Assembly (NCBI GenBank): GCA_963827095.1
Contig: CAWGZZ010000013.1
Coordinates: forward strand, 139,037 to 203,036
DNA from: an uncultured beta proteobacterium
GTDB taxonomy: Bacteria > Pseudomonadota > Gammaproteobacteria > Burkholderiales > Casimicrobiaceae
Length of the DNA stretch: 64,000 nt
Direction: 5' to 3'
Shown: piece after piece, positions 1-64,000 of the stretch
Numbering within the stretch: the stretch's first letter is position 1
Layout of the letters: each line of letters opens with the position of its first letter
The notes under the pieces: generated by a model
What the model was told of the DNA's origin: nothing
Databases searched by the model: none
What the model saw: only the letters and a program-made list of their open reading frames with translations
Made by a program: the position numbers and the translations under genes

Positions 1-745
1 AGCGTGAGCGGGTCGATCCGCAGGCGGCCCGCCGCGCGCTCGTCGGCGAGCAGCGCCAGCATCGACGGATAGCTCGCCAGGAACGCCGGCTGGTAGTCGT
101 TCAGTTCGGCGACGAGGCGTCGGCAGCGGATCCAGGATCGAGAAGCCGCGGGCCGCGATCCAGGGACTGCTCCGGCACAGGCGCTCCCACGACGCGATGC
201 TCGCGAAATGCTCGCCGGTCGCGGCCACCAGCGCGGCGCGCCCGCCGCGCCCGAGCAGCGGCCCCGCGAGCTGCGCTGCCAGGCGCAAGGGGTCGACAGC
301 CGCGGCCATCAGCGCGTCGAACGTCGCCAGCGCGTCGGCGTCCTGCACGTAGATGCCCGGCACGCCGGTGCTGCCCGAGCTCTTCCACACCACGAAGCGG
401 TCGAGGAAGCTCCGGCCGATGTGGCTGCGGTCGGCGAGAAAGGCCTCCACGCCCGCCCGCGTCACCTCGGAGTCGGTCACCCACTCGTCGAAGCGCGCCA
501 TCAGCACGCTCTTGGTGACCACCGGCACGTCGGAAGGGGCGAGCGGGCGCTCCGGCAGCCCGCGGTAAAGATCGCGATAGAGCCGCGAGTGCGTGCGCGC
601 GAAGGCCACCAGCGCGGCGAAGCGCTCGCGCGCGGCCGCGTCGATCGCCGCCCGGCCGAGCGCTGCGCGTCCACCAGATTTCGTGCATCCGCGACAGCCA
701 CGTCCAGTAAGCCACCGAAGCGCGGAGCGGTTCCAGCGCGGTCAT
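1..745 (-). pseudogene. phenylacetate-CoA ligase / coenzyme F390 synthetase-like adenylate-forming enzyme, N-terminal part (runs off left edge); frame broken twice
   Basis: Hand translation of the minus strand gives three segments. (1) MTALEPLRASVAYWTWLSRMHEIWW. (2) ALGRAAIDAAARERFAALVAFARTHSRLYRDLYRGLPERPLAPSDVPVVTKSVLMARFDEWVTD...WKSSGSTGVPGIYVQD, an SSGTTG-type AMP-binding motif. (3) LVAELNDYQPAFLASYPSMLALLADERAAGRLRIDP. The frame steps by +1 near 660 and near 125. Confidence 0.6.
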
Positions 746-760
746 CGGAGGAGCTTCGTG

Positions 761-859
761 CTGCGCATTCCGGCATTCGCCCCTGGGGCGGCCCGGCGGG
801 ATCATCGACCCTCCTTCACTCTGCGCACCGCGGGGTCCGCCCTTGGGGCGGGCGGCGGG
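761..859. promoter_or_regulatory. imperfect ~40-bp direct repeat (2 copies, 60-bp period) in the divergent intergenic region between the ligase-like gene and adh
   Basis: CTGCGCAttccggcattCGCCCcTGGGGCGGcccGGCGGG (761-800) versus CTGCGCAccgcggggtcCGCCCtTGGGGCGGgcGGCGGG (821-859). A further CTGCGCA lies at 862 and a related CTGCGCG at 894. Confidence 0.3.
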
Positions 860-958
860 CGCTGCGCAGGCTCCACTTCAGAGTGTACGCGCTCTGCGCG
901 CATCGACCCGCCGCCGAAGGTGGATTACGATCTCCATCAACGGCGCAAGGAGACGACG

Positions 959-1947
959 ATGCATGCGATGGTTCTGCGATCCCCGCGCACGGCGCTGCAA
1001 TACGCGCAGGTGCCGGACCCCCGCGCGGGGCCCGGCCAGCTGGTGGTCAAGGTCCACGCCTGCGGCGTCTGCCGCACCGACCTGCACGTCGTCGACGGCG
1101 AATTGCCGGACATCCCGCCGGATATCATCCCCGGCCACGAGATCATCGGCGAAGTCGCGGCGCTGGGGCCGGGTGTCGACGGATTCCGCGTCGGCGAGCG
1201 CGTGGGAATCCCCTGGCTCGCCTTCACCTGCGGCCGCTGCCGCCATTGCCGCGCCGGCCGCGAGAATCTCTGCGACGCGGCGCGGTTCACCGGCTACACC
1301 GTCGACGGCGGCTACGCGGAATACGTGGTGGCCGACAGCCGGTACTGCTTCGCGATGCCGGCCGGACTGTCCGCCGTCGAGCTCGCCCCGTGGCTTTGCG
1401 CGGGGCTCATCGGCTACCGCGCGCTCGCGATGGCCGGCGACGCCATGCATCTCGGCATCTACGGCTTCGGCGCCGCCGCGCACCTCATCGCGCAGGTCGC
1501 GCGCCATCAGGGGCGGCAGATCTACGCGTTCACGCGGCCGGGCGACGCGGTCGCGCAGGGCTTCGCGCGCGAGCTGGGGGCGGCGTGGGCGGGCGGCAGC
1601 GACGAGCCCGCGCCCTGCCCGCTCGACGCGGCGATCCTGTTCGCGCCGGTGGGCGCGCTGGTGCCCAAGGCGCTCAGGGACGTCGACAAGGGCGGCATCG
1701 TGGTGTGCGCGGGCATCCACATGAGCGACATCCCGCAGTTTCCCTACGCGATCCTGTGGCACGAGCGGCGCATCGCGTCGGTGGCCAACCTCACGCGGCG
1801 CGACGGGCTCGCTTTCATCGACATCGCGCAACGGGTGCCCGGTGCGCGCCGAGGTGAAGCCCTATGCGCTGGCCGATGCCAATGCTGGCACTGTCCGACC
1901 TGCGCAGCGGCGCCCTTTCCGGGGCGGCGGTGCTGACGATCACCTGA
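959..1947 (+). pseudogene. zinc-dependent alcohol dehydrogenase (MDR family); two +1 frame breaks in the last 110 nt, probably an intact gene with sequence errors
   Basis: AAGGAG lies 7 nt upstream of ATG 959. MHAMVLRSP...VKVHACGVCRTDLHVVDGELP...PGHEIIGEV...CGRCRHCRAGRENLC are the Zn-ADH motifs. The tail reads IAQRVP | VRAEVKPYALADANA | ALSDLRSGALSGAAVLTIT-stop only after hops at about 1839 (a CCC run) and about 1887. The 989 nt equal 987+2. Confidence 0.85.
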
Positions 1948-1963
1948 ACCGGGAGCGTGCGCC

Positions 1964-2743
1964 ATGGCCCTCGTCCTGACCGAGACTCGCGATGCCGTCG
2001 GCATCATCACCCTCAACCACCCCGGCAAGCGCAACGCGCTCGCCAAGGCGCTGGTCGACGACATCATCGCCGCGATGCTGGATTTCGAGGCGCGCAAGCT
2101 GCGGGTGGTGATCCTGCGCGCGGCGACCGGCGCCAAGGTCTGGTCGGCCGGCCACGACGTCGGCGAGCTGCCGGAATCGCGACGCGATCCGCTGGGCTGG
2201 GACGATCCGCTGCGCTACCTGATCCGCGGCATCGAGGAATTCCCATCGCCGGTCATCGCCATGGTCGAGGGCGGCGTGTGGGGCGGCGCTTGCGAGACGG
2301 TCTTCGCCTGCGATCTCGTCGTCGCGGCACCCAGCGCGACCTTCGCGATCACGCCGGCGCGCCTCGGCGTGCCCTACAACATCGCCGGCATGCTGACGTT
2401 CCTCAACGCGTCCTCGATGCGCATCGCCAAGGAGATGGCGTTCACGGCCAGGCCCATCTCCGCGGAACGCGCGGAGCGACTCGGCATGATCAACTATGTC
2501 GTCCCCGCCGACGACCTGGAGCGCTTCACCGTCGCCCTGGCCGATGACATCGCCGCCAACGCGCCGCTGTCGATCGCCGTGATGAAGGAGCAGCTGCGCA
2601 TCCTCGCCGGCGCGCATCCGATGTCGCCACAGGGCTTCGAGCGCGTGCAGGGACTGCGCCGGCTCGTCTACGACAGCAATGACTACCAGGAAGGCATCCG
2701 CGCGTTCAAGGAAAAGCGCAAGCCGCTGTTCCGCGGCAACTGA
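1964..2743 (+). CDS. scpB: methylmalonyl-CoA decarboxylase (enoyl-CoA hydratase/crotonase superfamily, YgfG/ScpB-like)
   Basis: Intact 259-aa ORF. From memory it is near-colinear with E. coli YgfG: KVWSAGHDVGELPESRRDPLGWDDPLR, MVEGGVWGGACE, VYDSNDYQEGIRAFKEKRKPLFRG. Confidence 0.85.
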   Translation: MALVLTETRDAVGIITLNHPGKRNALAKALVDDIIAAMLDFEARKLRVVILRAATGAKVWSAGHDVGELPESRRDPLGWDDPLRYLIRGIEEFPSPVIAMVEGGVWGGACETVFACDLVVAAPSATFAITPARLGVPYNIAGMLTFLNASSMRIAKEMAFTARPISAERAERLGMINYVVPADDLERFTVALADDIAANAPLSIAVMKEQLRILAGAHPMSPQGFERVQGLRRLVYDSNDYQEGIRAFKEKRKPLFRGN

Positions 2744-2746
2744 GCC

Positions 2747-2834
2747 GCAAACCGGGGACAGACCACGTCTTCCCGCGGCGGCCAAGTCACGCCGCGGAGT
2801 CCACCACGGAAAACGTGGTCTGTCCCCGGTTTGC
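2747..2834. repeat. 88-bp nested palindrome (22-bp outer stem, 7-bp inner stem) between convergent scpB and the RidA gene; REP-like element or bidirectional terminator
   Basis: gcaaaccggggacagaccacgt (2747-2768) is the exact reverse complement of 2813-2834. The inner pair is ccgcggc (2773-2779) / gccgcgg (2791-2797). It starts 3 nt after the scpB stop and ends 2 nt before the RidA stop. Confidence 0.8.
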
Positions 2835-2836
2835 GC

Positions 2837-3241
2837 TCAGCCCGGCCGCGGCCGGCGGGCGATGACTTCGACCTCGATGCGCATCTCGGGCCGTGCCAGC
2901 GCGGCCACGACGATGATCGTGTGCGGAGGGCGGTGCGCGCCGAAGAACGCGCCGCGCGCGGCGAGCGCGGCGGTCGTGTCCGCGCCGTCGACGAGCAGCG
3001 TAGTGAGCTTCACGACGTCGGCCGGCCCGCAGCCCGCAACCTGCAGCACCCGCGCGAGATTGGCATACGCCTGCGCCGCCTGCGCCGCGACGTCCCCGAT
3101 TCCCACCAGCTCGCCCTGCGCATCGCGCGCCACCTGTCCGGCGGTGAACACCAGATCGCCGACGATCGCGGCGTGCTCGTAGCTCGCCGGCCGATAGATG
3201 TCGGGCGGGCTTACCAGCGCAATCGCGTTGGGGTCGGTCAT
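2837..3241 (-). CDS. RidA/YjgF/L-PSP family reactive-intermediate deaminase
   Basis: MTDPNAIALVSPPDIYRPASYEHAAIVGDLVFTAGQVARDAQGELVG...IEVEVIA has the typical YjgF fold signature. The internal ATG at 3241 of ORF 2837..3295 gives a 134-aa protein. Confidence 0.8.
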   Translation of the reverse strand: MTDPNAIALVSPPDIYRPASYEHAAIVGDLVFTAGQVARDAQGELVGIGDVAAQAAQAYANLARVLQVAGCGPADVVKLTTLLVDGADTTAALAARGAFFGAHRPPHTIIVVAALARPEMRIEVEVIARRPRPG

Positions 3242-3465
3242 GGCGTGCGCTCCTGTGATCGCGGCGATGCATCCGGTCGGCCGCCGCCTCCGCATTCTAG
3301 GCGATCGCGTGGCGGCCGGACAAAGCCCTTCACCGCGACAGCGGCGCCGCGGCCCCGGTGAGCGTCACGCAGACTTGCGCGTTTCCTGCGGCGGATCAAG
3401 GCGCGACGGCGGCAACGGCCGAACAATGGGGGTTCGCCGTCCAAGCCTGCCCATGCGGAGCTCCG

Positions 3466-9454: not shown

Positions 9455-9473
9455 GTTCGAGTTCTTGGCCGTA

Positions 9474-9517
9474 ACTAATTGTTTTTATTTCACTAATTGC
9501 GGACGCCCGTTGCGGAC
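9474..9517. promoter_or_regulatory. AT-rich putative promoter/operator region upstream of the TetR gene, with two pairs of short direct repeats
   Basis: ACTAATTG at 9474-9481 and 9492-9499. TTGCGGAC at 9497-9504 and 9510-9517. It is embedded in gtaactaattgtttttatttcactaattg, the most AT-rich stretch in this part of the window. Confidence 0.3.
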
Positions 9518-9774
9518 ATTCGCATGAATGTGCAGCACCGTGCAGGGTTGATGCCCGCACGGTGCCCACAGTTCAATCAGGAACTTCGCCGCGAATAGTG
9601 AATCCGAGCTAACCGGTATTCTGCAGCTCATCGCCCGAGTACGGCGGCTTGCAACCGACGAGGGGTCCATCTACAGCCGTTCGAAGGGTTGGTCGTCGGC
9701 CATGCTGTCCTCGTCAACGTACAAGTCTTGACGCACCCGTCGGCGGATCGCCGCGTATGCTGGGCGTCATTCTT

Positions 9775-10179
9775 TCAGCGTCCGCGCCCGCTGTACCAAT
9801 GGTCGCGCAGCTTTTCCAGCTCACACACCACGGCAGCGGGAAATCCTTGCCGCTCTGGACGCCGGTCGACGAGGAGCTCCTGGAAATAGGCCTGGCACGA
9901 ATTGTAGTTGTCCCATTGCAGCGCTATTAGATTGATGATCCGCGGGAAGTGGGTGACAAGGGCACGCGGGAACACGTCGGGCGGCAGATGGCCGAGCCAT
10001 TTCTCGGTCGCCGGCAGCAATTGCTCCAGAGGCATCGCCCTGCGATGTCTTGACCAATCTTGCTCCCCGGCAGGGGATTCGCCCGCCGGCGCTGTTGGCC
10101 GCATAGCCACTTCGCCCCGAGTGTGGGGTTGGTCAATGCCGTTTAGTACATCCCACGTGCGCCGGCGATAGATCGACAT
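9775..10179 (-). CDS. hypothetical protein (134 aa) inside the island remnant
   Basis: GGGAG precedes ATG 10179. MSIYRRRTWDV...PLEQLLPATEKWLGHLPPDVFPRALVTHFPRIINLIALQWDNYNSCQAYFQELLVDRRPERQGFPAAVVCELEKLRDHW. The C-terminal ~85 aa look like a folded conserved domain. I cannot assign a family. Confidence 0.5.
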   Translation of the reverse strand: MSIYRRRTWDVLNGIDQPHTRGEVAMRPTAPAGESPAGEQDWSRHRRAMPLEQLLPATEKWLGHLPPDVFPRALVTHFPRIINLIALQWDNYNSCQAYFQELLVDRRPERQGFPAAVVCELEKLRDHWYSGRGR

Positions 10180-10613
10180 AGTGGCTCCCTTGCATACCGA
10201 TCCGCAGACCGGGACAGCGTCGGAGGCGACATTGGAAACGGATGCCAATGCGCGCAGTCTAGACCCAGCGAAGGCGAGCGGCAACGCGATCGCCGACACG
10301 CGATCCCCGATCCGTTGTGCACGATCCTGTCCCTCAGCCGACGATGTCCAACGGCCGGGAGATCGCCGCGTGATTTCGACTCCCCTTTCGGGGGCCGACT
10401 GGTGCGGATCGTCACCGTCGTCACCTTCGCCACAGACGCCCCAGCGACCGCCGTCCGGCACGGGCCGGCCGAAGGACCCCCGATCTGGTCTGCGGCCCCC
10501 GCTGGAGCGGTTGGTCATCGGCCGGCGTATGCCCTTCGCGCAGGCAATCGCGGCCATGCTGCGCCGCTACCGGCGATAGGGCGGGGGCGCGATGGTGCAT
10601 CGCCAATCGTCGC

Positions 10614-11054
10614 TCAATGCCGCGCGCCCCGTACACGACCTTCAGCCTTCTCGCGGCGGTAGTCGGCGACGGTGCGGGCGAGACCCGCTTCGAGATCGAT
10701 CTTGTGGTGCCAGCCGAGACCGTGCAGGCGCGAGCAATCGAGCAGCTTGCGCGGCATCCCATCCGGTTTGGTCGGATCCCAACCCAGTTCGCACGTGGCG
10801 CCGCACGCGTCGCGAACGCGTTCGACCAGTTCGCGGATCGACACCTCCTGGCCCGAACCGATGTTTACCCCATCGGGTGGATCATCCAGGCCGAGCAGGA
10901 AGAGCGCCGCGTCGGCCAGGTCGTCCACATGTAGGAACTCCCGCAACGCCACGCCCGTGCCCCACAGGTTGACGCTCGCGTCGCCGCGCTCACGCGCCTC
11001 CTCGAATAGCAGGCGCGCTTGCGCGCCGGCTTGCCGCAGGTGCGGGTGCACGAC
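10614..11054 (-). pseudogene. fcl: GDP-L-fucose synthase (Fcl) 3' fragment, N-terminal half missing
   Basis: Only the C-terminal ~140 aa are present: [27 protein letters not shown]...[18 protein letters not shown]...[38 protein letters not shown]. This matches the Fcl C-terminal half from memory. No Rossmann N-terminus lies upstream; homology stops at about 11050. Confidence 0.75.
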
Positions 11055-11282
11055 TTGAAGCACACCTTCGGGCGGCGGTTGCGGGCCGCCGGCGTATCGT
11101 TCGAGGACCGGCAGGATTTGCTCGGTCACCGCTCGGGACGCATCACCACGCGCTACTCGGCGGCGGAGTTGCAGAACCTGATCGCGGCGGCGGAAAGGGT
11201 GTGCGAGCTGGGTGTCCACAAAATGCCCACACTCGTGATTTTGAAAAGAAAAGCGCCTGCCGCGGCTTCGGCAAGCGCTTGA
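11040..11282 (+). pseudogene. tyrosine-type (phage) integrase, C-terminal catalytic stub only
   Basis: [44 protein letters not shown] carries the HxxR ... LGH ... Y catalytic motifs. About 80 codons remain. The 5' end abuts the truncated fcl fragment on the other strand at about 11040. Confidence 0.75.
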
Positions 11283-11298
11283 TGTTGCAGTAGAAATC

Positions 11299-11375
11299 TG
11301 GCGCGCCCGGCAGGAATTGAACCCACGACCCCCTGGTTCGTAGCCAGGTACTCTATCCATCTGAGCTACGGGCGC
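11299..11375 (-). tRNA. tRNA-Arg (anticodon ACG)
   Basis: Minus strand GCGCCCGTAGCTCAGATGGATAGAGTACCTGGCTACGAACCAGGGGGTCGTGGGTTCAATTCCTGCCGGGCGCGCCA. The acceptor stem is perfect (7 bp), the anticodon loop is CTACGAA and CCA is encoded. The T stem has two G-U pairs. Confidence 0.9.
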
Positions 11376-11379
11376 ATCT

Positions 11380-12944
11380 TTAAATTATAGCATCGTGCTT
11401 GTCGCGGCCGCCACCCGTGCTTTCGCCCTTGCCGGCGTCCGGCGCCGCCGCTGGTGCATGCGGTGCCGGCGTGCGCTGCCGCCGCAATGCCCACGCCTTG
11501 CCGAGCATCGAGAGCCCGAGCCAGGCCGCGATGATCGCGAGCGGGATCGCCAGCGTCCGCGGCCACAGGAAGCCGATGACCGACGTCGCGAGCGCGAACG
11601 CCGCAAGCTTCACCAGCAATCCCGATTCCGCCGGTCCCAGCAGGCGACGGTTCGTGAGCGCCGCCCCCATCGCGTTGCCGACGGAAATCGCGCCTGCGGC
11701 GGCGCGCCCGGCGCTGCCCGAGGCCGCGTGGCGCACGGGTGCCGCGGGGCTGCCCTCCTCCGATCTTGCGCACCCGATTGCGGCGCGTCAGCACGATTTC
11801 GGTGGCGCGGCGCAGGTCCTCCTCGTACATCGCGGCCATCTCCGCGGCGAAGCCCCGGTCCTCGATCGCGACGTCGAGCTCCCAGTTCTGTATCCAGCTC
11901 GCGAAGTTGAGGTTGGTCGAGCCCACGCGCGCCCACAGTCCGTCGGCCACCGCGGTCTTCGCGTGCAGCATCGTGCCGTTCCACTCGAACACGCGCACGC
12001 CCGCGGCGAGCAGCGGCCGGTAGCCGGCGCGCGAGAGCGGCTGCAGCGCGGCGATGTCGCTGGCGCCGGGGACCAGCAGCCGGACGTCGACCCCGTCGCG
12101 GGCCGCCGCGCACAGCGCCTGCACGTACGGCGACAGGCCGACGAAATAGGCGTCGGTGAGCCACAGGTAGTCGCGCGCCGCCGAGGCGATCAGCTGGTCG
12201 AGCCGGAAGACGCCGGCCGCGCTGGGCGTGCCGGCGATCACCCGCACGGCAACGTCGCCGGCGCGCGCGATGTCGCCGGGCGCGGTCATGTCCTTCTTCG
12301 CGAGCGCCGCCCCGCCGCAGGCACGCCACACCTCGGCGAACGCTTCCTCGAGCTCGGCGACCGCGGGGCCGCGAATCTCGATCCCCGTATCGCGCCAGGG
12401 CTCGAGCAGGCGTGCCGGGTCGCCGCGCCACGCCGCGCTGATGCACACGCCGGTGACGAAGCCGACGCGGCCGTCGATCGCGATCGTCTTGCGGTGATCG
12501 CGCGACACCCAGGCGAGCGGCGTCGTGATGGCGAATGGGTTGAAGCGGCGGACTTCGGCGCCGGCGGCGCGCAGCTGCGACCCACAGTTCCCGCGCGCCC
12601 AGCGAACCGAGCCAATCGTAGATCACGCGCACGCGGATGCCGGCACGCGCCTTCGCGGCCAGCGCGGCGGCGAACTCCTGTCCGACGTCGTCGTCCTGCC
12701 ACAGATAGGACTCGAACAGGATCGTGCGCTCGGCCTTGGCGATCGCGTCGAGCCAGGCCGGATAGTTCCCCGCCGCATCGCGCAGGATGCGCACTGCATT
12801 GCCCTCGATGCGTGGCGATCCGGTCGCGCGCGCAAAGGCCCGGTCCAGCAGGCCCAGCGCCGACTCGTCCATCGTCGCGGGCGGCGGCCTGGGCACAACG
12901 CCGCCGCGCTCGGTCGGCAGCCTGCCGTCGATCTGCTGCACCAT
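11380..12944 (-). pseudogene. phospholipase D / cardiolipin synthase-like protein with two HKD motifs and a C-terminal membrane tail; two +1 frame breaks
   Basis: Three segments in frames 0, 1 and 2. (1) ...[40 protein letters not shown]. (2) [18 protein letters not shown] ... [22 protein letters not shown]. (3) [45 protein letters not shown]. Breaks lie near 12590 and 11740. The TAA stop is 4 nt from tRNA-Arg. Confidence 0.75.
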
Positions 12945-13144
12945 GCGATGCTCCCCGCCGTTGCCGGTCGCTCGACGCGCAGCGACTGCGTCAATCTGCG
13001 CGCCGGCCCCCGCTCCCGCCGCCATTATGAGCCGCGGCTTAGCGTCGGGGCATGCTTCTCAGGGGACACTATGAAGTCGCCGACAAAACGACTTGACGCA
13101 CATCGCACAAGCGACAGTTCTCGCGCCGGAGTGCGGTGCAATAC

Positions 13145-13237
13145 TGGCGGAGACGAAGGGATTCGAACCCTTGATGCAGTTTTTGGCCGCATGCTCCCTT
13201 AGCAGGGGAGTGCCTTCGACCTCTCGGCCACGTCTCC
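13145..13237 (-). tRNA. tRNA-Ser (anticodon GCU), long variable arm
   Basis: Minus strand GGAGACGTGGCCGAGAGGTCGAAGGCACTCCCCTGCTAAGGGAGCATGCGGCCAAAAACTGCATCAAGGGTTCGAATCCCTTCGTCTCCGCCA. The anticodon loop is CTGCTAA and the T arm is AAGGGTTCGAATCCCTT. Confidence 0.9.
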
Positions 13238-13313: not shown

Positions 13314-14565
13314 TTACGCAGTCGCCGGCGCCTGCTCCAGCTCGAACGCCTTGTGCAGCACGCGCACGGCGAGCTCGAGGTACTTCTCGTCGATCACCAC
13401 CGAGATCTTGATCTCGGAGGTCGAGATCATCTGGATGTTGATGCCCTCGTCGGCGAGCGCCTTGAACATCTTGCTCGCGAGGCCCGACGTGCGAGCGCAT
13501 GCCGATGCCGACGGCGGACACCTTGCAGATCCGGTTGTCGCCGATGATCTCGCGCGCGGCGAACACCTTGCCGCGCTCGCGCGCCAGCACGTCGAGCGCC
13601 TTCTGGTATTCGCGCGCGGTTGACGGTGAACGAGAAGTCGGTGTGCCCCGACGCGCCGATGTTCTGCACGATCATGTCGACGTCGATGTTGGCGGCGGCG
13701 ATCGGGCCGAGGATCGCGTACGCGATGCCTGGGCGATCCTCCACGCCCATCACCGAGATCTTGGCTTCGTCGCGCGTGAACGCGATGCCGGAAATGATCG
13801 CCTGCTCCATGGTGTGATCTTCCTCGTAGGTGATGAGCGTGCCGGCGGAAGTGACCTCGGGGTCCTCGAGCGACGAGAGCACGCGCAGCTTGACCTTGTA
13901 CTTGCCCGCGAACTCGACCGAGCGGATCTGCAGCACCTTCGAGCCGAGGCTCGCCATCTCGAGCATTTCCTCGAAGGTGACGTTGTCCAGGCGCCGCGCC
14001 TCGGGCACGATCCGCGGGTCGGTGGTGTAGACGCCGTCGACGTCGGTGTAGATCTGGCACTCGTCGGCCTTCAGCGCCGCGGCCAGCGCGACGCCCGAGG
14101 TGTCGGACCCGCCGCGCCCGAGCGTGGTGATGTTGTCCTCGGCGTCCACGCCCTGGAAGCCGGCGACGATGACGATCGTGCCGGCCTCGAGGTCGGCGCG
14201 CATCTTGTCCTCGTCGATCGTTGAGGATGCGCGCCTTGGTGAACGCGCTGTCGGTCAGCACCTGCACCTGCCCGCCGGTGTAGCTCTTCGCCTTGAGGCC
14301 CATCGCCTCGCAGCGCGATCGCGAGGAGCCCGATCGTCACCTGCTCGCCGGTGGCGGCGACGACGTCGAGCTCGCGCGGGTTCGGGCTCGGCGAGAGCTC
14401 CTTCGCCAGCGCCAGCAGGCGGTTGGTCTCGCCGCTCATCGCGGAGACCACGACGACCAGCTGGTGGCCCTCGCGATGGAAGCGCGCGACGCGCCGGGCG
14501 ACGTTCTTGATGCGGTCGGTGGTGCCGACGGACGTGCCGCCGTATTTCTGGACGATCAGGGCCAT
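13314..14565 (-). pseudogene. lysC: aspartate kinase; four +1 frame breaks, probably an intact gene with sequence errors
   Basis: Segments: [26 protein letters not shown]...[14 protein letters not shown] | [24 protein letters not shown] | [18 protein letters not shown]...[16 protein letters not shown]...[15 protein letters not shown] | ...[16 protein letters not shown] | [30 protein letters not shown]. The frames run 0,1,2,0,1. The 1252 nt equal 1248+4. Confidence 0.9.
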
Positions 14566-20160: not shown

Positions 20161-20242
20161 GCGCAGGATGCCGCGTGCTACGGTCGTCATTCCGGCGGGC
20201 GGCGGACGCGCGGCGGCCCGCGGACCGCGGTCGCGCCGGTCG

Positions 20243-48343: not shown

Positions 48344-48403
48344 CCCGGCGCCGGACCGGGGCATCGGGTAAAATGTTTGTTTTGCGAGCAGGGAGAGACT
48401 GCG

Positions 48404-49327: not shown

Positions 49328-49329
49328 CG

Positions 49330-49530
49330 ATGGCCGACGCCAAGGACGCGGTGCCGGTCGAGGTCGAGCCGAAGGACCTGCCGGTGTTCTGCCCCAATCC
49401 GTCGATGCCGCTCTGGTCGTCCCATCCGCGCGTCTTCCTCGACATCGCCGACACCGGCGCGGCGATGTGCCCGTATTGCGGCACGCGCTACGTGCTGCGC
49501 GGCGGCCCGCACAAGGGCGGCCATCACTGA
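49330..49530 (+). CDS. small zinc-finger (CHCC-type) protein
   Basis: The 66-aa sequence MADAKDAVPVEVEPKDLPVFCPNPSMPLWSSHPRVFLDIADTGAAMCPYCGTRYVL carries the C..H...CxxC pattern. It starts 3 nt after the ilvE stop. Confidence 0.6.
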   Translation: MADAKDAVPVEVEPKDLPVFCPNPSMPLWSSHPRVFLDIADTGAAMCPYCGTRYVLRGGPHKGGHH

Positions 49531-49599
49531 CACCCCCGGCGCCGGCACGCGCGCGGCGCGCGCCGTGCGCGCCTGCGCTGCGGTCTCCCGGATGGAGCG

Positions 49600-51944: not shown

Positions 51945-53103
51945 CAGCGCAGCACCAGCAGCATGAGGTAGGACAGGAACAGCATCAGGTGGACGGCTCC
52001 CTGCAGGACGTTGGTGCGCCCGCTCGCGAAGGTGAGCATGCTGACGAGCAGCGTCAGCAGCAGCATCGCCTCCTCGACCGGCTCCAGCCCGAGCACGACG
52101 GTGTAGCCCCGCGCCAGGCCGATGATCACGACGGCGGGGATGGTGAGCGCGAGCGTGGCCAGCACCGAGCCGAGCAGGATGTTGACGGAGCGCTGCATGC
52201 GGTTCGCGCGCGCCGCCTGGATCCCGGCAAGCCCTTCGGGCGCCAGGACCAGGATCGCGACCGCAAGCGCGCCCAGCGCCGTGCGGCGCGCCGAGGGTCT
52301 CGATGCCGTGGTCGAGCAGCACCGCGAGCTTCTCGGCGAGAAAGATGACCAGCCCGAGGTACAGCACGAGCAGCAGCGTGTGATGCGGCACGGAGCGCAC
52401 GGCGGAGGAATGCCCGTGCATCTCGCCCGCGGCGGCGGCAGGCGGTGCTTCCTCGAGGCGATCGAGGAAGAACGCGCGATGGCGCGTCGTCTGGATCGCC
52501 AGGAAGACCGCGTACAGGCCGACGCACATGACGATCAGGAACGCCTCCTGGCCGCGCGAGAACGTCGGCCCCGGCGTCGACAGCGTGAAGTTGGGGACGA
52601 CCATCCCGAACACCGACAGCGCGACGATGACGCTGAGGTAGGCATTGACCCCCTTCAGGTTGTATTCCTGCTCGTGGTAGCGCAGGCCGCCCAGCAGCAG
52701 CGCCGCGCCGACAAGGCCGTTCAGGACGATCATCACCACCGAGAACATCGTGTCGCGGGCGAGCGTCGGGTTGGGATCGCCGGTGGTCATGACGATGCCG
52801 ATGGTCATGATCTCGATGCTCGCCACCGACAGCGTCAGGATCATCGTGCCGTACGGCTCGCCGAGCAGCGGCAGCCAGGCCGTCGGCGTGGCGCACGACC
52901 GACATCGCGCCCAGGATGATCACCACGAACAGCCACGCGAACATCAGCGCGCCGATCCAGGTGCCCGCCTCCCCGATCAGCCGCCCGCGCCCGAGGCCGG
53001 CGAACACGATCGCGGTCACGACGATGACGGCGAGCGACGCCTCCCGGCGGTACGCGGGGGCCGCCGCGGCGTCGTCGGGGCGGGACTCAGGCCGTGCCGC
53101 CAA
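51944..53103 (-). pseudogene. chaA: calcium/cation:proton antiporter (CaCA family, ChaA-like); two +1 frame breaks
   Basis: Segments: ...AVIVVTAIVFAGLGRGRL...MFAWLFVVIILGAMSVVRHAD | ILTLSVASIEIMTIGIVMTTGDPNPTLARDTMFSVVMIVLNGLVG...HEQEYNLKG | MQRSVNILLGSVLATLALTIPAVVIIG...FASGRTNVLQGAVHLMLFLSYL. The frames run 0,1,2. The TTG 53103 start is uncertain. Confidence 0.7.
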
Positions 53104-54552
53104 CCGTCAGCCCGTCGATCTTGAGCGTCGGCTGGCCGACGCCGACCGGCACGCTCTGGCCGTCCTTGCCGCAGGTCCCCACGCCGGAGTCCATCTCGAG
53201 ATCGTTGCCGACCATGGACACGCGGGTGAGCGCATCGGGGCCGTTGCCGATCAGCGTCGCCCCCTTGACCGGATACGCGAGCTTGCCGTTCTCGATCTTC
53301 CAGGCCTCGGCCATCGAGAACACGAACTTGCCGCTGGTGATGTCGACCTGGCCGCCGCCGAAGTTGGCGGCGTAGATGCCGTCCTGCACGGATGCCAGGA
53401 TCTCGGCCGGGTCGTGGCCGCCGGCGAGCATCAGCGTGTTGGTCATCCGCGGCATCGGCATGTGCGCGAAGGACTCGCGGCGCCCGTTGCCGGTCGGCGC
53501 CACGCCCATCAGCCGCGCGTTCTGCCCGTCCTGCATGTAGCCCTGCAGGATGCCGTCCTCGATCAGCACCGTGCGCTGCGTCGGATTGCCCTCGTCGTCG
53601 ACGTTGAGCGAGCCGCGGCGGCGCGCGAGCGTGCCGTCGTCGATCACGGTGATGCCCTTCGGCCGCGACGCGCTGCCCGACCCGCCCCGAGAATGCGCTC
53701 GTGCCCTTGCGGTTGAAGTCGCCCTCGAGCCCGTGGCCGATCGCCTCGTGCAGCAGGATGCCCGGCCAGCCGGGCCCCAGGACCACGGTCATCGTGCCGG
53801 CGGGCGTCTCCCGGGCGCCGAGGTTGAGCGTGGCCTGGCGCACCGCGAGCTCGGCGTAGCGGGCGAGCACGTCGTCGGTGAAGTACGCGTAATCGAAGCG
53901 CCCGCCGCCGCCGGCGTGGCCCTGCTCGCGGCGGCCGTCCTCCTCGACGATGACCGTCAGCGACACGCGCACCAGCGGCCGGACGTCGGCGGCGATCAGC
54001 CCGTCGCTGCGCGCGACCAGCACCGCCTCGTATTCGCCGGCGATCGAGGCCATCACCTGCATCACCCGCGGATCGCGCGCCCGGGCCATCTTCTCGAGGC
54101 GCTCGAGCAGGCCGACCTTCGCCTCCTCGGGCAGCGAGGTCACCGGATCCTGCGGCGCGTAGAGCGACCGGGCGTTGCCGATCCGCCCCAGCGGCGCGAC
54201 GGCGGACTGGCCCTGGCGGCCGATGGCGCGGGTCGCGACGGCGGCCTCCTCGAGCGCGGCCGAGCGTGATGTCGTCCGAGTAGGCAAAGGCCTGCTTCTC
54301 GCCGTGCACCGCGCGGATGCCCACGCCGCCGTCGATGCTGAAGGCGCCGGACTTGACGATGCCCTCCTCCAGACTCCAGCTCTCCATCCGCGAGTACTGG
54401 AAGTAGAGGTCGGCGAAGTCGACCTCGTGCGTGTGGATCGAGGCCAGAATGCGGGCGAGATCGGCGGTGTCGAGCCCGGCGGGCTCGAGCAGGAGCCGCC
54501 GGGCCTCGGCGAGGAGGACGGCGTCGACAGGGGGAAGCGAAAGGTCGGTCAC
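53087..54552 (-). pseudogene. tldD: metalloprotease TldD; two +1 frame breaks
   Basis: Segments: ...[51 protein letters not shown] | ...[34 protein letters not shown] | [33 protein letters not shown]...[18 protein letters not shown]...[23 protein letters not shown]. The 1466 nt equal 1464+2. Confidence 0.9.
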
Positions 54553-54591
54553 GGGAGTCCTTGGTCGGGCCGCCGCAGGCGATCGGCGGGG

Positions 54592-55366
54592 TCAGCCCCG
54601 CGGCGAGGACGCTATTGTCGCACCGGATGCGCCTTCCTGCGCCGCGCTGCCCTTGCCGAGGTAGGTGGCCGCCACCTGCGGGTTCGCGGCCAGGCTGGCG
54701 CTGTCGCCCTCGATCGCGAGCTCCCCGGTCTCCAGCACGTAGCCGTAATCCGCGACCTGCAGCGCCGCCCGCGCGTTCTGCTCGACCAGCAGGATCGACA
54801 CGCCGCTCTCGCGCAGCGCCGCGATGATCCGGAAGATTTCGCGCACGATCAGCGGGGCGAGCCCGAGCGACGGCTCGTCGAGCATCAGCAGCGCCGGCTT
54901 CGCCATCAGCGCGCGACCCATCGCCAGCATCTGCCGCTCGCCGCCGGAGAGCGTGCCCGCGAGCTGGTCGCGACGCTCGAGCAGGCGCGGGAAGCGCGCG
55001 TAGACCTCGTCGAAGCGTCGCCCGCCACGTGCGGTCCCCCTGCCGCGCCCGGCTGAAGGCGCCGAGCTCGAGATTGTCGGCCACGCTCATCGCCGCGAAC
55101 AGCTCGCGCCGCTCGGGCACCAGGACCAGACCGCGGGCCACCCGCTGCTCGACGGACAGCGCGGTGGCCGGCGCTCCGCGATAGCGAATCTCGCCGCGCG
55201 CCGGCAGCAGGCCCATGATCGCGCCCAGCAGCGTCGTCTTGCCGGCGCCGTTGGGGCCGATCACGGTGACGATCCTGCCCGTCTCCACGGTGAGCGAGAT
55301 GTCCTGCACCGCCTCGACCTTGCCGTAGGCGACGCGCAGGTTGCGCACCTCGAGCAGTGCACTCAT
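54592..55366 (-). pseudogene. livF: branched-chain amino acid ABC transporter ATP-binding protein (LivF type); at least one +1 frame break
   Basis: [47 protein letters not shown]...LVPERRELF | [30 protein letters not shown]...ILLVEQNA. The hop lies near 55030. Confidence 0.85.
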
Positions 55367-55489
55367 GCAGGCTCCGCCGCGCTCATCGGGCAACCTCGCG
55401 CCGGCTTGTCCTGCGCGCGGGCGGCACCTGCCCTGGGCTTCGCCGCTGCGTAATCTGCGCGCCCGCGGAGCGGGCACGTCCGCGCATGC

Positions 55490-57271
55490 TCATGCGACGC
55501 CTCCGAGGTAGGCTTCGAGCACGGCAGGATTGCGCTGGATCTCGGCCGGCAGGCCCTCGGCGAGCTTTTCGCCGAAGTCCATCACGACCAGCCGGTCGGT
55601 GAGACCCATCACGAACTCCATGTCGTGCTCGACCAGCAGAATGGTCATGCCCTCCGCGCGCAGGTGCGCGCAGGAGCGCGGCCAGTTCCTGCTTTTCCAG
55701 AAAGCGCAGGCCGGCCGCGGGCTCGTCGAGCAGCAGCAGCACCGGATCGGCGGCGAGCGCCCGGGCGATCTCGACGATGCGCTGCTTGCCCAGAGGCAGG
55801 CTGCCCGCGCTGTGCGTGCGTCTGCGCCGCCAGCCCGACGCGCGCGATCGCGCGCGCGGCCTCGGCCTGCGTCCGGGCTTCCTCGCGGCGGTCGAGCCGC
55901 AGCGCGGCACGAACGACGCCGGACGAGCCGCGCAGGTACGCGCCCAGCGCGACGTTGCCGAGCACCGTCATCTGCGGGATCAGCCTCACGTGCTGGAACG
56001 TGCGGCCGATGCCGCGCCGCGCGATCTCGAACGGCTTGCAGCCGCCGATCGATTCGCCGCGGAAGGTGACCGCGCCCGCCGTGAGCGGGAGCGCGCCGGA
56101 GATCAGGTTGAACATCGTGCTCTTGCCGGCGCCGTTGGGCCCGATCAGGCCGAGGATCTCGCCGGGGCGGATCACGAACGACAGGTCGTTCACCGCGACC
56201 AGGCCGCCGAACTGCTTGCGCGCCCGGGCGACGTCGAGGAGGACGCCGGCCGGCGCGTTCCGCGCGCGCGCCGGCAGCGGCGCCGCCGCCGGCACCGGCG
56301 GCGGCGCCCGCGCCGGCAGCAGGCGCGCGAGCCACGGCCACACGCCCTCGCGCGCGCGCTGCAGCACCAGCACCATCAGCACGCCGAACACGACGATCTC
56401 GAAGTTGCCGCTCTTGCCGAGCAGCGTCGGCAGGATGTCCTGCAGCACCTGCTTCAGCAGCGTCACCAGCGTGGCGCCGATCACGGCACCCCACACGCTG
56501 CCGGCGCCGCCCACGACGGCCATGAACAGGTACTCGATGCCCTGGTTGATGCCGAAGGGCGTGGGGTTGATGAACCGCTGCAGGTGCGCGTAGAGCCAGC
56601 CGGAAATGCAGGCGAGCAGCGCCGCATACACGAACACGACGATGTTGAGCCGCGCCGTGTCGACGCCGAACGCCTCCGCCATCTCGGCCTGGCCCTTGAG
56701 CGCGCGGATGGCGCGGCCCGGGCGCGAGTCGAGCAGGTTGTTCGTGCTCCACAGCGCGACCAGCGTGATGCCCCAGATCAGGTAGTAGAAATGGCGCTCG
56801 TTGCGCAATTCGGTGCCGAACAGCCCCAGCGCGGGAATTCCGGTGAGGCCGGTGTACCCGCCGAGGAACTCCAGATTGCCGAACACCAGCGAGATGCTGA
56901 TGCCCCAGGCGATCGTCGCCAGCGGCAGGTAGTGCCCCTTCATCCGCAGCGTGATGAAGCCGAGGAACAGCGACAGCGCCAGCGTGAGCGACGAGCCCGA
57001 CGACGAGGTTGATCCACGGCGACACCGCGTACTGCGTGCTGAGGATCGCCGTCGTGTACGCGCCGATGCCGACGAATGCGGCCTGCCCGAACGACGTCTG
57101 CCCGGCGACGCCGGTCAGCAGGACCAGGCCGAGCGCGACGATGCTGTAGAGCCCGATGTAGTTGCCGAGCGTCACCCAGAACTGCGGCGCGACGAGCGGC
57201 ACGCCGACCAGGACCGCGATGAAGCCGGCATAGCCCCACGCGCCGAACGGCAGCTTGTAGCCTGAGCTCAC
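55490..57271 (-). pseudogene. fused branched-chain amino acid ABC transporter permease (LivM-like) and ATP-binding protein (LivG-like); three +1 frame breaks
   Basis: Permease part: [25 protein letters not shown] | ...[24 protein letters not shown]...[19 protein letters not shown]. It runs on in the same polypeptide into the ATPase part: [49 protein letters not shown] | [31 protein letters not shown] | [16 protein letters not shown]. The frames run 0,1,2,0. Confidence 0.85.
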
Positions 57272-57334
57272 GCCGCGCGTCCCCGTGCGCGAGCGTCGGC
57301 CGGCGTCGAGGCGCAGGACCCCGAGCTCATCCGG

Positions 57335-58375
57335 TCACTCCTCGTCCTGGTGCTGCGTGGTCAGGCTGCGCCACAGCAGCACCGGAATGATCAGCGTGAA
57401 CACGATCACTTCCTTGAACCCGCTGGCCCAGAACGACGCGAACGCCTCGACCTGGCCGACGAACAGCGCGCCGGCCGCCGCCAGCGGATAGCTCGACGAG
57501 GCCGCCGATGATCGCGCCGACGAAACCCTTGAGGCTCACCAGGAATCCGGAATCGTAGTAGACGGTCATGATCGGCCCGATCAGCACGCCCGGAGAACGC
57601 GCACAGCGGCGCGGCGAGGATGAACGTGAGCGCGCCGGCGAGATCGGGCGACATGCCGACCAGCCGCGCGCCGACGCGGTTGAGCGCGGTCGCGCGCAGC
57701 GCCTTGCCGACCAGCGTCCGGCCGAAGAACAGGTAGAGCCCCGCGATCAGCGCGATGCTGGTCGCCACGACCAGCATGCTCTGCACGCTGATGCGGATGC
57801 CGCCGAGCTCGAACGGAATCCGCCGAGAACGGCGGCGTGCGCGAGCCCTCGGCGCCGAAGAACCAGAGCCCCAGCCCGGTCAGCGCGAAATGCACGGCGA
57901 CCGAGACGATCAGCAGCACCAGCACGCTCGCCTCGGCCAGCGGCTGGTACGCGATGCGGTACAGCAGCGGGCCGAGCGGCGGTGACCAGCGCCAGCGTCA
58001 CCAGGATCTGCGCCCAGAACGGAAGCGTCGGCGACGGCGAGGCACCACGCGGCCGCGGCGATCGCGAGCGGGATGCCGGTCCACGTCAGCGAGCTGCCGC
58101 GGAATCCGCCGCGCCTCGCCGCGGCGCAGGCAGGCGTAGATCTCCATGACGCCGGCGACGGCGGCCATGCCGGCCAGCAGCCCGACGGTGCCGGGCGGCT
58201 TGCCCAGCTGCAGGCCGGCCAGCGTCAGCGTGCCGTAGGCGACGAACTCGCCGGACGGAATCCAGATCACGCGCGTGACGGCGAACACCAGCACCAGCGC
58301 GAGCGCCAGCAGCGCGTAGACGGCACCGTTGGTGATGCCGTCCTGCACCAGCAGCGCGAAGATCTGGAGGTCCAT
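57335..58375 (-). pseudogene. livH: branched-chain amino acid ABC transporter permease (LivH type); five or more frame breaks
   Basis: Segments: [48 protein letters not shown] | ...VAVHFALTGLGLWFFG | SIALIAGLYLFFGRTLVGKALRATALNRVGARLVGMSPD | LIGPIMTVYYDSGFLVSLKGFVGAIIGGL | hand-read tail ...[19 protein letters not shown], stop 57337-57335. Confidence 0.8.
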
Positions 58376-58458
58376 GTCGTCAGCACGCGGCCTGGCCGCG
58401 CCATGAAAAAGGCCGGCTGCGGACGCTGCCGCACCCGGCCTTCGTCAGGGGCGCAACG

Positions 58459-59613
58459 TCACTTCGCCAGCACCCACTTCCCGTTGTCGATCTTGATCAT
58501 CGTCCGCGCGCGGTTGTCGAGGCCGTTGTGCTCGGTCGGCGACATCGTGTACACGCCGTGCGTGGCCACCAGCTCCTTGGTGCCCTCCAGCGCATCGCGC
58601 AGCGCGAGCGCGGAATTCCTTGGTGCCCGGCTTCGCCTTCTTCAGCGCCTCGGGGATCGCCTTGGCCAGCAGCAGGTAGGCATCCCAGGCGTGGCCGCCG
58701 AAGGTCGTCCGCGAGTCCTTGCCGTATTTCGCTTCGTACTTGCCGATGTACTCGGCGGCCGTCTTCTTGATCGGGTTCGAGTCCGGCAGCTGCTCGAAGA
58801 CGAGCATCGGCCCGATCGGCAGCAGCGTGCCGTCGCCGTCCTTGCCGACGACGCGCAGGAAATCGGGGTTGGCGACGCCGTGCGTCTGGTAGATCTTGCC
58901 CTTGTAGTTGCGGGCGGCGAGCTCCTTCTGCGGTGTGGCGCCCGGCGTGCCCGACGCGCCGATCAGCACGGCGTCGGGATTGGCGGCGACGATCTTCAGG
59001 ATCTGCCCGGTGACCGACGGGTCGTTGCGGTTGTACTTCTCCTCGGCGACGATCTTGATGCCGGCCGTCTGCGCGGAGCGGCGCATCTCGGCGAGCCAGC
59101 CGTCGCCATAGGCGTCGGCGAAGCCGATGTAGGCCATCGTCTTCACGCCGTTCGCCTTCATGTGGACGGCGATCGCGTCGGCCATCAGCGCGTCGTTCTG
59201 CGGCGTCTTGAACACCCACCGCGTCTTCGGGTTCGCCGGGTCGACGATCCGCGCGGACGCCGCCATCGAGATCATCGGCGTCTCCGCGTCGGCCACGACG
59301 TCGACCATCGCCAGCGAGTTCGGCGTGATCGTCGAGCCGACGACGACGTCGACCTTGTCCTCGGAGATGAGCTTCTTGGTGTTGGTCACCGCCTTGGTCG
59401 TGTCCGAGCCGTCGTCGAGCACGATCCAGTTGACCTTCTGGCCGCCGATCGTCGTCGGCAGCAGCTCGATGGTGTTCTTCTCGGGGATGCCCAGCGACGC
59501 GGCGGGACCGGTCGCCGACAGCGTGACGCCGACGTTGATGTCGGCACGCCGCGGGGTTGACCGTCCAGGACGAGCGCGGCGGCGAGCGCCGGCAGCAGTT
59601 TGCGGACGTGCAT
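58459..59613 (-). pseudogene. branched-chain amino acid ABC transporter substrate-binding protein; two frame breaks (one -1/+2 type, one +1)
   Basis: Segments: MHVRKLLPALAAALVL (signal) | ADINVGVTLSATGPAASLGIPEKNT...LDDGSDTTKAVTNTKKLISEDKVDVVVGSTITPNSLAM...AYIGFADAYGDGW | hand-read tail ALRDALEGTKELVATHGVYTMSPTEHNGLDNRARTMIKIDNGKWVLAK. Confidence 0.8.
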
Positions 59614-59790
59614 GAATTCCTCCAGAGCCTCTTGGGAAATACGGGGATCGCGCGGCCTTGGCGCTTCAGTGCGGCCGTCTGTTGCCGCATCGGCGGCTGG
59701 GTGGGCCGACGCGTGCTGCGGTCACCGGATTCTGGCAAACCCGATGCCCCGGGTCAACGCCCGGGACTTGATTCACCTGAAGAAAGCCGC

Positions 59791-62361
<2,571 letters not shown>

Positions 62362-62479
62362 GGCAAAAATGGTAGCACGCGGACCGCGGCTCCTGCGTCC
62401 GCGCGGCAACTCGCGCGCGATCCGGGTGTCGCAGCGCATTGCGGCACGCCGAGGTTAACGCGACAATCGGAATTTCCCG

Positions 62480-63654
62480 ATGGCCATCCCCACTCCGCTC
62501 TCCCGCGCGCTGTCGCCCCGCCCGCGCACGCTTGCCCTGCGCGACGACGTCGCGCTGGCGGAGATCGCGCCCGCGCGGTGGAACGAGCTCGCGGCCCGGG
62601 CAGCCGCTGCTCTCGCACGCCTTCCTGACGGCGCTGCACGACAGCGGATGCGCCGCGCCGCGAACCGGCTGGCGCCCGCGCTACGTCACCGCCTGGGCCG
62701 ACGACACGTTGCAGGGCGCGCTGCCGATGTACGAAAAGATGCATTCGTACGGCGAATACGTCTTCGACTGGGCGTGGGCGGATGCCTACCGCCGCTACCA
62801 GCGCCGCTACTACCCGAAGCTGGTCGTCGCCATCCCGTTCACGCCGACGTCGGGGCAGCGCCTGCTCGCGGGCGACGACGCGACGCGCGCAGCGCTGCTG
62901 GGGCATGCGCGCGGCGATGCTCGCCGGCGGCGCCTTCTCGTCGCTCCACGTGCTCTTCCCGACGGCGGCCGAGGCCGCGCTCTGCGAGGCCGGCGGGATG
63001 CTGGTGCGCCACGGCGTGCAGTTCCACTGGGACAATCCGGGCTACGGCGATTTCGCCGACTTCCTCGCGGCGTTCAGTCACGACAAGCGCAAGAAGGTGA
63101 AGCAGGAGCGGCGCAAGCTCGCCGAAGCCGGCGTCAAGTTCCAGCGCAAGGTCGGCGGCGAGATCTCCGCCGCGGACTGGGCGTTCTTCCATGCGTGCTA
63201 CGAAGGGACGTACCACGCCCACGGTTCGACGCCGTACCTTTCCCTCGAATTCTTCGAGCGGATCGGGCAGTCGATGCCGGCAAACCTGCTGCTGGTGCTG
63301 GGAACGCGCGACGGCCGGCCGATCTGCGCCGCGCTCGACGTGTTCGACGGCAGCACACTCTGGGGCCGTTACTGGGGCGCGCCGGAATACGTGCCCGGCA
63401 TGCACTTCGAGGCGTGCTATTACCAGGCGATCGAGTTCTGCATCGAGCGCGGCATCGCGCGCTTCGAGGGCGGCGCGCAGGGAGTCCACAAGCTTGCCCG
63501 CGGGCTGCTGCCGGTGGCGACGTCCTCGGCGCATGCCATCGCCGACCCGGCCTTCGCGCGGGCGATCGCCGATTTCTGCGCCCGCGAGCGGGTCGATGTG
63601 GCGCACGCACTCGAGGAGCTCGAGACCGCGAGCCCGTTCCGGAACGGGGCCTAA
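62480..63654 (+). pseudogene. GNAT/FemAB-like acyltransferase (DUF482, COG3146-type); two +1 frame breaks
   Basis: Segments: MAIPTPLSRALSPRPRTLALRDDVALAEIAPARWNEL | QPLLSHAFLTALHDSGCAAPRTGW...MYEKMHSYGEYVFDWAWADAYRRY...PKLVVAIPFTPTSGQRLL | ...FHWDNPGYGDFADFLAAFSHDKRKKVKQERRKL...LWGRYWGAPEYVPGMHFEACYYQAIEFCIERGIARFEGGAQGVHKLARGL. Confidence 0.7.
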
Positions 63655-63827
63655 TCGCGCGCCCGCCGCGTGCGCTGCGCCAACGCCCGCGCGGCATCCG
63701 CAAGCGTCGAGCCACTACCCTCCCTGTACCGCGCGTGGCCGGCGCTGAACCGAGCGTCGGGTTCCAGCGTCGATTCGCCCCGGTCGCATCCCCGCTGCGC
63801 GGGGCCCCTGCTCCCAGGCTCACGACG

Positions 63828-64000
63828 CTACCGGTTGAAATCCTCGTCGGCGGGCGTGGTTTCGGCGGCGCGCGGGGCTTCGTTGCCGGGCGAAGGTTCG
63901 TTGCCGGGCGACGATCCGGGTTTCGGCCCGCGGCGATTGCGATTCGCGTGCGGCCGGTTCTTGCCTTGCCCGGGTCCCGGCCCCTGGCGCTTCGGCCGGT
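63828..64000 (-). CDS. C-terminal tail of an unidentified protein (basic Gly/Pro/Arg/Asn-rich, runs off right edge)
   Basis: Minus-strand hand translation gives ...RPKRQGPGPGQGKNRPHANRNRRGPKPGSSPGNEPSPGNEAPRAAETTPADEDFNR with stop TAG 63830-63828. GC3 is high. The composition resembles the low-complexity tails of RNA helicases and similar proteins, but no catalytic part is in the window. Confidence 0.3.
   Translation of the reverse strand, partial: RPKRQGPGPGQGKNRPHANRNRRGPKPGSSPGNEPSPGNEAPRAAETTPADEDFNR

Follow-up and report, generated by a model that had tools for sequence, protein, structure and literature searches.

Pervasive frameshifts in a Casimicrobiaceae metagenome contig are assembly errors that carry a recognisable signature

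Introduction

Genes that can be read only by switching frames are known from several settings, and the case considered here is a 64,000-nucleotide stretch of DNA (the window) from an uncultured beta proteobacterium of the Casimicrobiaceae (GenBank assembly GCA_963827095.1, contig CAWGZZ010000013.1, positions 139,037 to 203,036), in which about 32 of some 56 genes, many of them essential, are frame-disrupted. Decaying genomes such as those of Mycobacterium leprae and recent symbionts also carry a large share of disrupted genes; stop mutations and deletions accompany the frameshifts there, selection is relaxed, and essential genes are spared. In programmed +1 frameshifting of the prfB type, the full protein is obtained only if one base is skipped. 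Consensus sequences from Nanopore and PacBio continuous long reads (CLR) contain single-base indels that split conserved genes as well as under-called homopolymers, and truncated proteins, which the IDEEL test measures, are the standard symptom of such indels (PMC9262707). Long-read assembly can also introduce indel errors and apparent frameshifts by collapsing alleles: in Trypanosoma brucei Lister 427, haplotype merging gives such errors near allelic variants (PMC8445201).

The window resembles these systems to different degrees. As with long-read consensus errors, its conserved genes are split by single-base indels while the accurate-read assemblies of its relatives are intact; unlike the typical case, its indels are 87% insertions, mostly C/G doublets at third codon positions outside homopolymers. 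A link to the density of single-nucleotide polymorphisms (SNPs) and the presence of two-allele doublets match the collapsed alleles of T. brucei, although that organism is a diploid eukaryote and the “alleles” of the window would be co-occurring bacterial strains. Unlike prfB-type sites, those of the window lack conservation, a slippery or Shine-Dalgarno context and an adjacent 0-frame stop, and there are many per gene. Unlike decaying genomes, the window shows neither stop mutations nor relaxed selection, and essential genes are not spared. Very probably, the frameshifts are consensus errors of a metagenome-assembled genome (MAG) and not features of the DNA of the organism; the proposed mechanism is that wobble alleles were written in tandem, with homopolymer compression in addition.

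Extent and direction of the frame disruption

The G+C content of the window is 70%, and spurious long open reading frames (ORFs) are present in all frames, which makes lists of ORFs of little use. Reading frames were followed instead with a Viterbi path of seven states, one for each of the six frames and one for non-coding DNA, using a codon-usage model trained on intact ORFs, and with a protein-to-DNA aligner that permits frameshifts, written for this analysis, with intact orthologues from fetched loci as references. These orthologues were selected by a strand filter based on the codon-usage path and by existing gene calls; a GC1/2/3 filter on the stop-to-stop ORFs of relatives was dropped after antisense ORFs passed it.

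The Viterbi path makes dozens of same-strand frame switches within single genes, nearly all of them +1. In 28 genes, frameshift-aware alignment detects 77 single-base insertions (+1), 11 single-base deletions (-1) and one +2 step, without a single internal in-frame stop codon in these broken genes. Two further genes, encoding a PLD-family protein and a chaA-like antiporter, add two +1 junctions each on the evidence of the codon-usage path and Pfam. The total comes to about 95 junctions, well above the number of genes, with +1 sites occurring about once per 700 bp, and the excess of insertions is strong (about 83 against 12 deletions; sign test, p=3e-14). Up to 11 junctions fall in one gene (fabH and plsX, with 10 in fabD and 6 to 8 in livH), and transporters are affected alongside the essential ftsK, dnaX, serS, fabD/F/G/H and plsX. 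The distribution is very uneven: about 44 gene events lie at 13.3-20.2 kb and none at 46.95-51.9 kb. Table 1 gives the events gene by gene.

A sequence-only reading of the window had held that at least 29 genes require frame switching and that almost all junctions are +1. Every gene that it named is confirmed, and the total rises to about 32. Its directional claim is borne out as a strong bias, and -1 steps are present in all of the genes (fabG, fabD, livK, yhdP and dctM) for which it had noted a minority of -1/+2 steps. It had also proposed aligning the rebuilt proteins to orthologues and tabulating the sign of each indel, and that tabulation is dominated by insertions and free of in-frame stops.

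Table 1. Frame-disrupting events in the window (window coordinates; L-numbers denote sequences of relatives)
Feature	Coordinates	Strand	Events	Reference or basis
“ligase-like” gene A	96-805	-	2 insertions: 119, 661	L168 (96.1%, gene intact)
adh, Zn-dependent alcohol dehydrogenase	920-1944	+	2 insertions: 1841 (CCC[G]), 1884	L168
PLD / cardiolipin-synthase-like gene	11492-12969	-	2 +1 junctions near 11762, 12579	Viterbi path
lysC	13323-14565	-	4 insertions: 13487, 13611, 14224, 14309	alignment to L002 LysC, 89% identity
fabF	14619-15853	-	5 insertions: 14882, 14985, 15205, 15668, 15747	alignment to L002 FabF
fabG	16336-17073	-	insertion 17054; deletion 16914; last-codon deletion near 16338	alignment to L171 FabG
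fabD	17112-18060	-	7 insertions, 3 deletions	alignment to L171 FabD
fabH	18130-19093	-	9 insertions, one +2 step, one deletion	alignment to L171 FabH
plsX, insertions	19089-20160	-	19982, 19872, 19754, 19748, 19232, 19201, 19155, 19127	base-level against L005
plsX, deletions	19089-20160	-	19994, 19735, 19144 (2 nt)	base-level against L005
rpmF-plsX spacer	20176-20242		4 single-base insertions, one 2-nt and one 3-nt insertion	L005
maf	21190-21832	+	1 insertion: 21227	alignment to L005
dctM, large TRAP permease	23133-25369	-	insertions 23795, 24542, 24636; deletion 24159	L170 DctM, 746 aa, 91% identity
dctQ	25369-25993	-	1 insertion: 25911	alignment to L170 DctQ
dnaX	28531-30259	-	1 insertion: 29030	exact against L005; alignment to L170 DnaX
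mltF	30867-32222	+	3 insertions: 31225, 31856, 32142	alignments to L170, L088
serS	32313-33591	-	1 insertion: 33035	alignment to L170 SerS, 95% identity
rarA/mgsA	33764-35161	-	3 insertions: 34090, 34595, 34776	alignment to L088
lolA	35255-35798	-	1 insertion: 35583-35585	exact against L001
142-aa ORF	35800-36230	-	1-base deletion: 36133	exact against L001 gene 546-974
ftsK	36265-38600	-	insertions 36625, 37331, 38406; deletion G7 to G6 at 38541-38546	exact against L001
intergenic homopolymer	41497-41502		C7 to C6	exact against L001
yhdP	41568-45485	-	insertion 43408; deletion C8 to C7 at 44409-44415	exact against L001
glnE	45606-48340	+	insertions 46218, 46945	exact against L001 (intact, 911 aa)
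chaA-like cation antiporter	51949-53087	-	2 +1 junctions near 52287, 52874	codon-usage path
tldD	53090-54591	-	2 insertions: 53659, 54260	three independent references concordant
livF, livG, livM	54595-57336	-	4 insertions: ~55014, 55669, 55826, 56991	alignments to L008, L015, L026, L032, L050
livH	57338-58441	-	6 insertions: 57493, 57590, 57813, 57979, 58034, 58086	three references concordant
livK	58462-59620	-	insertion 58605; -1/+2 step near 59545-59563	alignment and codon path
mscL	59794-60235	-	1 insertion: 59877	three references concordant
glnB (P-II)	60290-60627	-	2 insertions: 60410, 60308-60310	read from sequence and alignments
nadE	60754-62361	-	3 insertions: 60891, 61129, 62327	three references concordant
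DUF482 gene	62468-63645	+	2 insertions: 62598, ~62929	three references concordant

The rebuilt PLD and chaA-like proteins give unbroken Pfam matches. The window adh matches Pfam ADH_N, the PLD protein has two PLDc_2 matches, and the SLT domain of mltF, the AAA and MgsA_C domains of rarA/mgsA and the Na_Ca_ex domain of the chaA-like protein all extend across junctions. The deletion in the last codon of fabG removes its stop codon, so that its ORF fuses to acpP, and livH carries an additional +1/-1 pair close to its start. In glnB, two extra bases had been claimed, one at 60410 and one in the CCC at 60303-60305. Two +1 events, the first at the claimed place, are indeed found; the other is best placed at 60308-60310, close to that CCC but not in it, and removing position 60308 restores a protein that ends in ESGEAAV before the stop, just as its orthologues do.

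For the PLD gene, the sole candidate reference was P0060, a 1001-aa PLD-family protein from ENA, and it was rejected: when it is aligned to 11466-13016, its Arg-rich stretches match out-of-frame translations of the window gene, which leaves the alignment meaningless. Judged by its sequence, P0060 is itself an out-of-frame chimera, and frameshift-laden proteins from long-read MAGs appear on this evidence to contaminate the protein collection.

Close relatives lack the indels

The proteins of the window appear in public collections on one NCBI/ENA contig, 424,596 bp long. Their named relatives are, at their nearest, MAGs labelled Betaproteobacteria, Casimicrobiaceae or Usitatibacter. A closer match is L001, a Joint Genome Institute (JGI) metagenome contig found through an exact TrxB protein match, which is 99.1% identical over 35255-49718. 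Against it, the window has extra single bases at 35583, 36625, 37331, 38406, 43408, 46218 and 46945, and is one base short at 36133 and in runs of G7, C7 and C8. The same indel pattern is seen against L005 (96.6-97.9% identical), L006/L007 (97-98%) and L168 (96.1%), the stretches compared with these contigs being 18757-23048, 27476-29374 and 94-3265. DNA alignment to these 96-99% identical contigs gives exact positions for 33 single-base insertions, of which 26 lie within genes. None of the 33 is present in L001, L005/L006 or L168, and neither are eight small deletions, seven of them 1 nt long and the eighth 2 nt. Insertions are most crowded in plsX/fabH, where 1.2 kb contains 15 of the single-base kind; the exact fabH sites, placed against L005, span 18784-19046.

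These relatives encode full-length FtsK, YhdP, GlnE, PlsX, Adh and Maf. The ftsK gene of L001 is intact (778 aa), and its product and that of the corrected window sequence are about 100% identical in amino acids; yhdP in L001 (1306 aa), plsX in L005 (356 aa) and adh in L168 (341 aa) are complete as well. On the source contig, the public gene calls consist of 612-aa and 362-aa fragments for yhdP and a 192-aa fragment for maf. Illumina/MEGAHIT contigs (L170-L172) share the gene order of the window (serS-mltF-dnaX-ybaB-recR-dctPQM-CBS-...-plsX-fabHDG-acpP) and have all of their genes intact, among them serS, mltF, dnaX, dctQ/M, plsX, fabH, fabD and fabG. Since the extra bases are missing from near-identical sequences elsewhere, they are best regarded as assembly mistakes.

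The indels are not restricted to coding DNA, as spacers between genes have single-base insertions too. Besides those of the rpmF-plsX spacer, they lie at 21855, 21865 and 28512, the last just beyond dnaX, and the exactly placed set includes seven single-base insertions and one deletion in intergenic DNA. Where broken genes differ from close relatives by substitution, 223 of 326 in-gene mismatches fall at codon position 3, and 214 are synonymous against 112 non-synonymous. With about 70% of substitutions at third positions, and most of them synonymous, these genes are under purifying selection.

Could the genes nonetheless be decaying, as in a host-restricted symbiont? Many genes are broken and the public record does carry the frame-shifted sequence, so that genuine pseudogenisation has to be weighed. 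It is extremely improbable: essential single-copy genes are all affected, in-frame stop mutations and large deletions are lacking, and the third-position bias persists in the broken genes. The predominance of insertions runs against the deletion bias that the sequence-only reading ascribes to real bacterial gene decay, strains with 96-99% identity have none of the indels, and no mutational process predicts that an inserted base should be a synonymous variant of the wobble base next to it, which is what the insertions described below turn out to be.

The other biological possibility is that the DNA does contain the extra bases and that the cell skips them genome-wide, through programmed +1 frameshifting or deletion editing of transcripts. 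It draws on the almost uniformly +1 direction and on the fact that skipping one base restores the proteins perfectly. Its probability is nevertheless close to nil. The sites are not conserved even in strains of 99% identity and have no common slippery motif; up to 11 of them occur in a 1-kb gene, insertions of an identical kind lie in intergenic DNA, and -1 events and homopolymer compressions are intermixed. Past a +1 site, reading without a shift would meet its first stop only after a median of 118 codons (minimum 8), so that no prfB-like signal is present. Together, the intact close relatives, the intergenic indels, the lack of stops, the third-position substitutions and the missing prfB-like signal exclude both decay and recoding for practical purposes.

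A synonymous-doublet signature

Where frames can be taken from the relatives, 23 of the 26 exactly placed in-gene insertions adjoin the wobble base, and in 20 of the 26 the result is a synonymous form of the codon (ACC[G], GGG[C], CTC[G] or CT[G]C, the extra base in brackets). Among these 20 are all three in-gene A/T insertions (GT[A]C, CG[T]C and GC[A]C), and both insertions in glnB are of this kind (CGC[G] and GA[A/G]). The property can be put as a doublet test, which asks for two adjacent different bases such that the best-matching protein is the same whichever of the two is removed. It holds for 53 of 74 events (72%), compared with 41% of simulated insertions matched for composition, 32% of G/C-only ones and 40% of those made to create CpG (binomial p=1e-7).

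The doublets appear, on this indirect evidence, to reflect natural variation in the lineage. C/G doublets fit the idea of tandem alleles, because the commonest natural wobble difference is C<->G (100 of 223), and at several doublets either base can be found in relatives that are further removed (at ftsK 36625 and 37331, L001 has ACC and L177 has ACG). Across 9 regions, the density of insertions follows the local density of SNPs (Spearman 0.92, p=5e-4).

Homopolymers play a different part in insertions and deletions. Short G/C runs had been put forward as the site of several junctions, and this is borne out in adh, with an insertion at the CCC/G of 1838-1841 and another at 1884, and in lolA, where the site expected at about 35584 coincides with the insertion placed against L001. 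As a general account it does not hold: runs of at least three bases are involved in only about 7 of 74 insertions, and homopolymer slippage is rejected as their main cause on that ground. The deletions behave otherwise. All three L001 homopolymers of at least 7 bases are shortened by one base in the window (G7 to G6, C7 to C6 and C8 to C7), and no run of more than 7 bases is present in the window; location in a homopolymer thus describes these three deletions, while the insertions lie mostly outside runs. Shortening of a homopolymer by one base is a familiar compression error of long reads. Basecalling error at methylation motifs was rejected as well, because the true sequence has no CpG or GATC at these sites, and such motifs arise only after the insertion.

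A model consistent with these results would start from an assembled population of closely related strains that differ mainly at synonymous third positions. At some of these sites, the consensus of noisy reads would have retained both alleles side by side, mostly as “CG”, and the tandem alleles, standing where one should have been chosen, would amount to a one-base insertion. A second mode of error shortened the longest homopolymers by one base, and gene callers then split or truncated about 32 of the 56 or so genes.

Several points weigh against this account. Both the sequencing platform and the presence of more than one strain in the source sample are inferred. The correlation with SNP density covers only 9 regions, and the relatives used to look for polymorphism at doublet sites, at 85-88% identity, are too distant to be informative. 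Some 28% of insertions fall outside the synonymous-doublet class. Among the doublets, about 80% are C/G pairs, whereas C/G accounts for 45% of natural differences at wobble positions, and “CG” outnumbers “GC” by about 4 to 1; because both exceed the natural SNP spectrum, a context-specific consensus bias that creates CpG probably contributes.

Taken further, this last point leads to a version in which strain polymorphism has no role: long-read consensus noise of a generic kind, due to low coverage or to a context-specific basecaller or polisher error in very GC-rich DNA, would insert G after C or C before G. The frameshifts would still be artefacts. About 70% of the exactly placed insertions do create CpG and the CG order is favoured, homopolymer compression co-occurs, and the very uneven error density is what coverage-dependent noise gives. 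We regard this version as unlikely, as the simulation that creates CpG falls well short of the doublets observed, the A/T insertions are also synonymous variants at wobble positions, and the insertion density tracks SNPs that are real and mostly synonymous.

Alternatively, the indels may have been added after assembly, by polishing with the wrong strain, by a faulty step of frameshift correction or merging, or by deliberate corruption of the record. The abrupt change in event density between 13.3-20.2 kb and 46.95-51.9 kb would agree with such an origin. It is still very unlikely: random corruption would not yield wobble-synonymous doublets, and mis-polishing with a related strain is in effect the same two-allele mechanism.

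What look like tandem wobble alleles, together with homopolymer compression, refine what the sequence-only reading had argued. Its case for insertion-biased consensus errors is upheld by the intact near-identical and short-read contigs, the intergenic indels, the purifying selection and the lack of stops; what changes is the nature of the insertions, which are mainly C/G wobble doublets and are not driven by homopolymers.

Other features of the window

Comparison with the relatives also brings out differences of other kinds. At the 3' end of yceD (20459-20600), the window lacks a T present in L005 (GGC[T]GGC, 20573), and the window gene aligns end to end and without frameshift to its L171 orthologue; either the two sequences truly differ here or L005 itself may be in error. 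Natural-looking length variants are found upstream of the neighbour of ftsK, where the window has 37 bases more than a close relative (36179-36215), and in the spacer downstream of ech, where 27 and 11 bases are missing at 2746 and 2825; that spacer holds copies of a GCAAACCGGGGACAGACCAC-like repeat.

Gene content varies too. At 23100-27400, the window has the dctPQM TRAP operon, which is present in L170-L172 and has a lactate permease gene in its place in the 97% identical L005/L006; from these sequences, the exchange is a strain-level variation in gene content between recR and the CBS gene. The chaA-like antiporter gene is missing in L008 between an ABC ATPase gene and tldD, and on that comparison is a strain-variable insertion. 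The stretch at 9471-11491 (2 kb, reduced G+C) has almost no coding signal apart from the last ~119 aa, at the C-terminus, of an NAD-dependent epimerase (10645-11004), and adjoins a tRNA-Arg gene (11299-11375); the likely origin is the remains of a gene or an integrated element that has decayed at the tRNA.

Within proteins, the two membrane halves of DctM are joined by an Ala/Pro/Glu-rich linker of about 130 aa that contains GLAEPPA-like repeats (24050-24550), an architecture common to full-length homologues of 700-750 aa. The N-terminus of a CN-hydrolase ORF (41380-41470) holds a putative short peptide repeat, GTQMQGTQTEGTQMQGEQT, upstream of the nitrilase-family domain. A bacterial small signal recognition particle (SRP) RNA upstream of dnaX (30387-30485) and a tRNA-Ser(GCT) downstream of lysC (13145-13237) score well, which suggests that neither contains disruptive indels.

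Conclusions

The frameshifts of the window are not a biological feature: they arose in assembly and can be recognised by their signature. They have no biological importance, and their relevance is to the quality of public data. In this window of a public MAG contig, over half of the genes are mis-called, and protein databases already contain the resulting fragments. Because the insertions resemble the two alleles of a wobble SNP in tandem, strain-aware consensus calling should remove them, where added coverage alone may not. The simple synonymous-doublet test can flag this class of error from the sequence alone.

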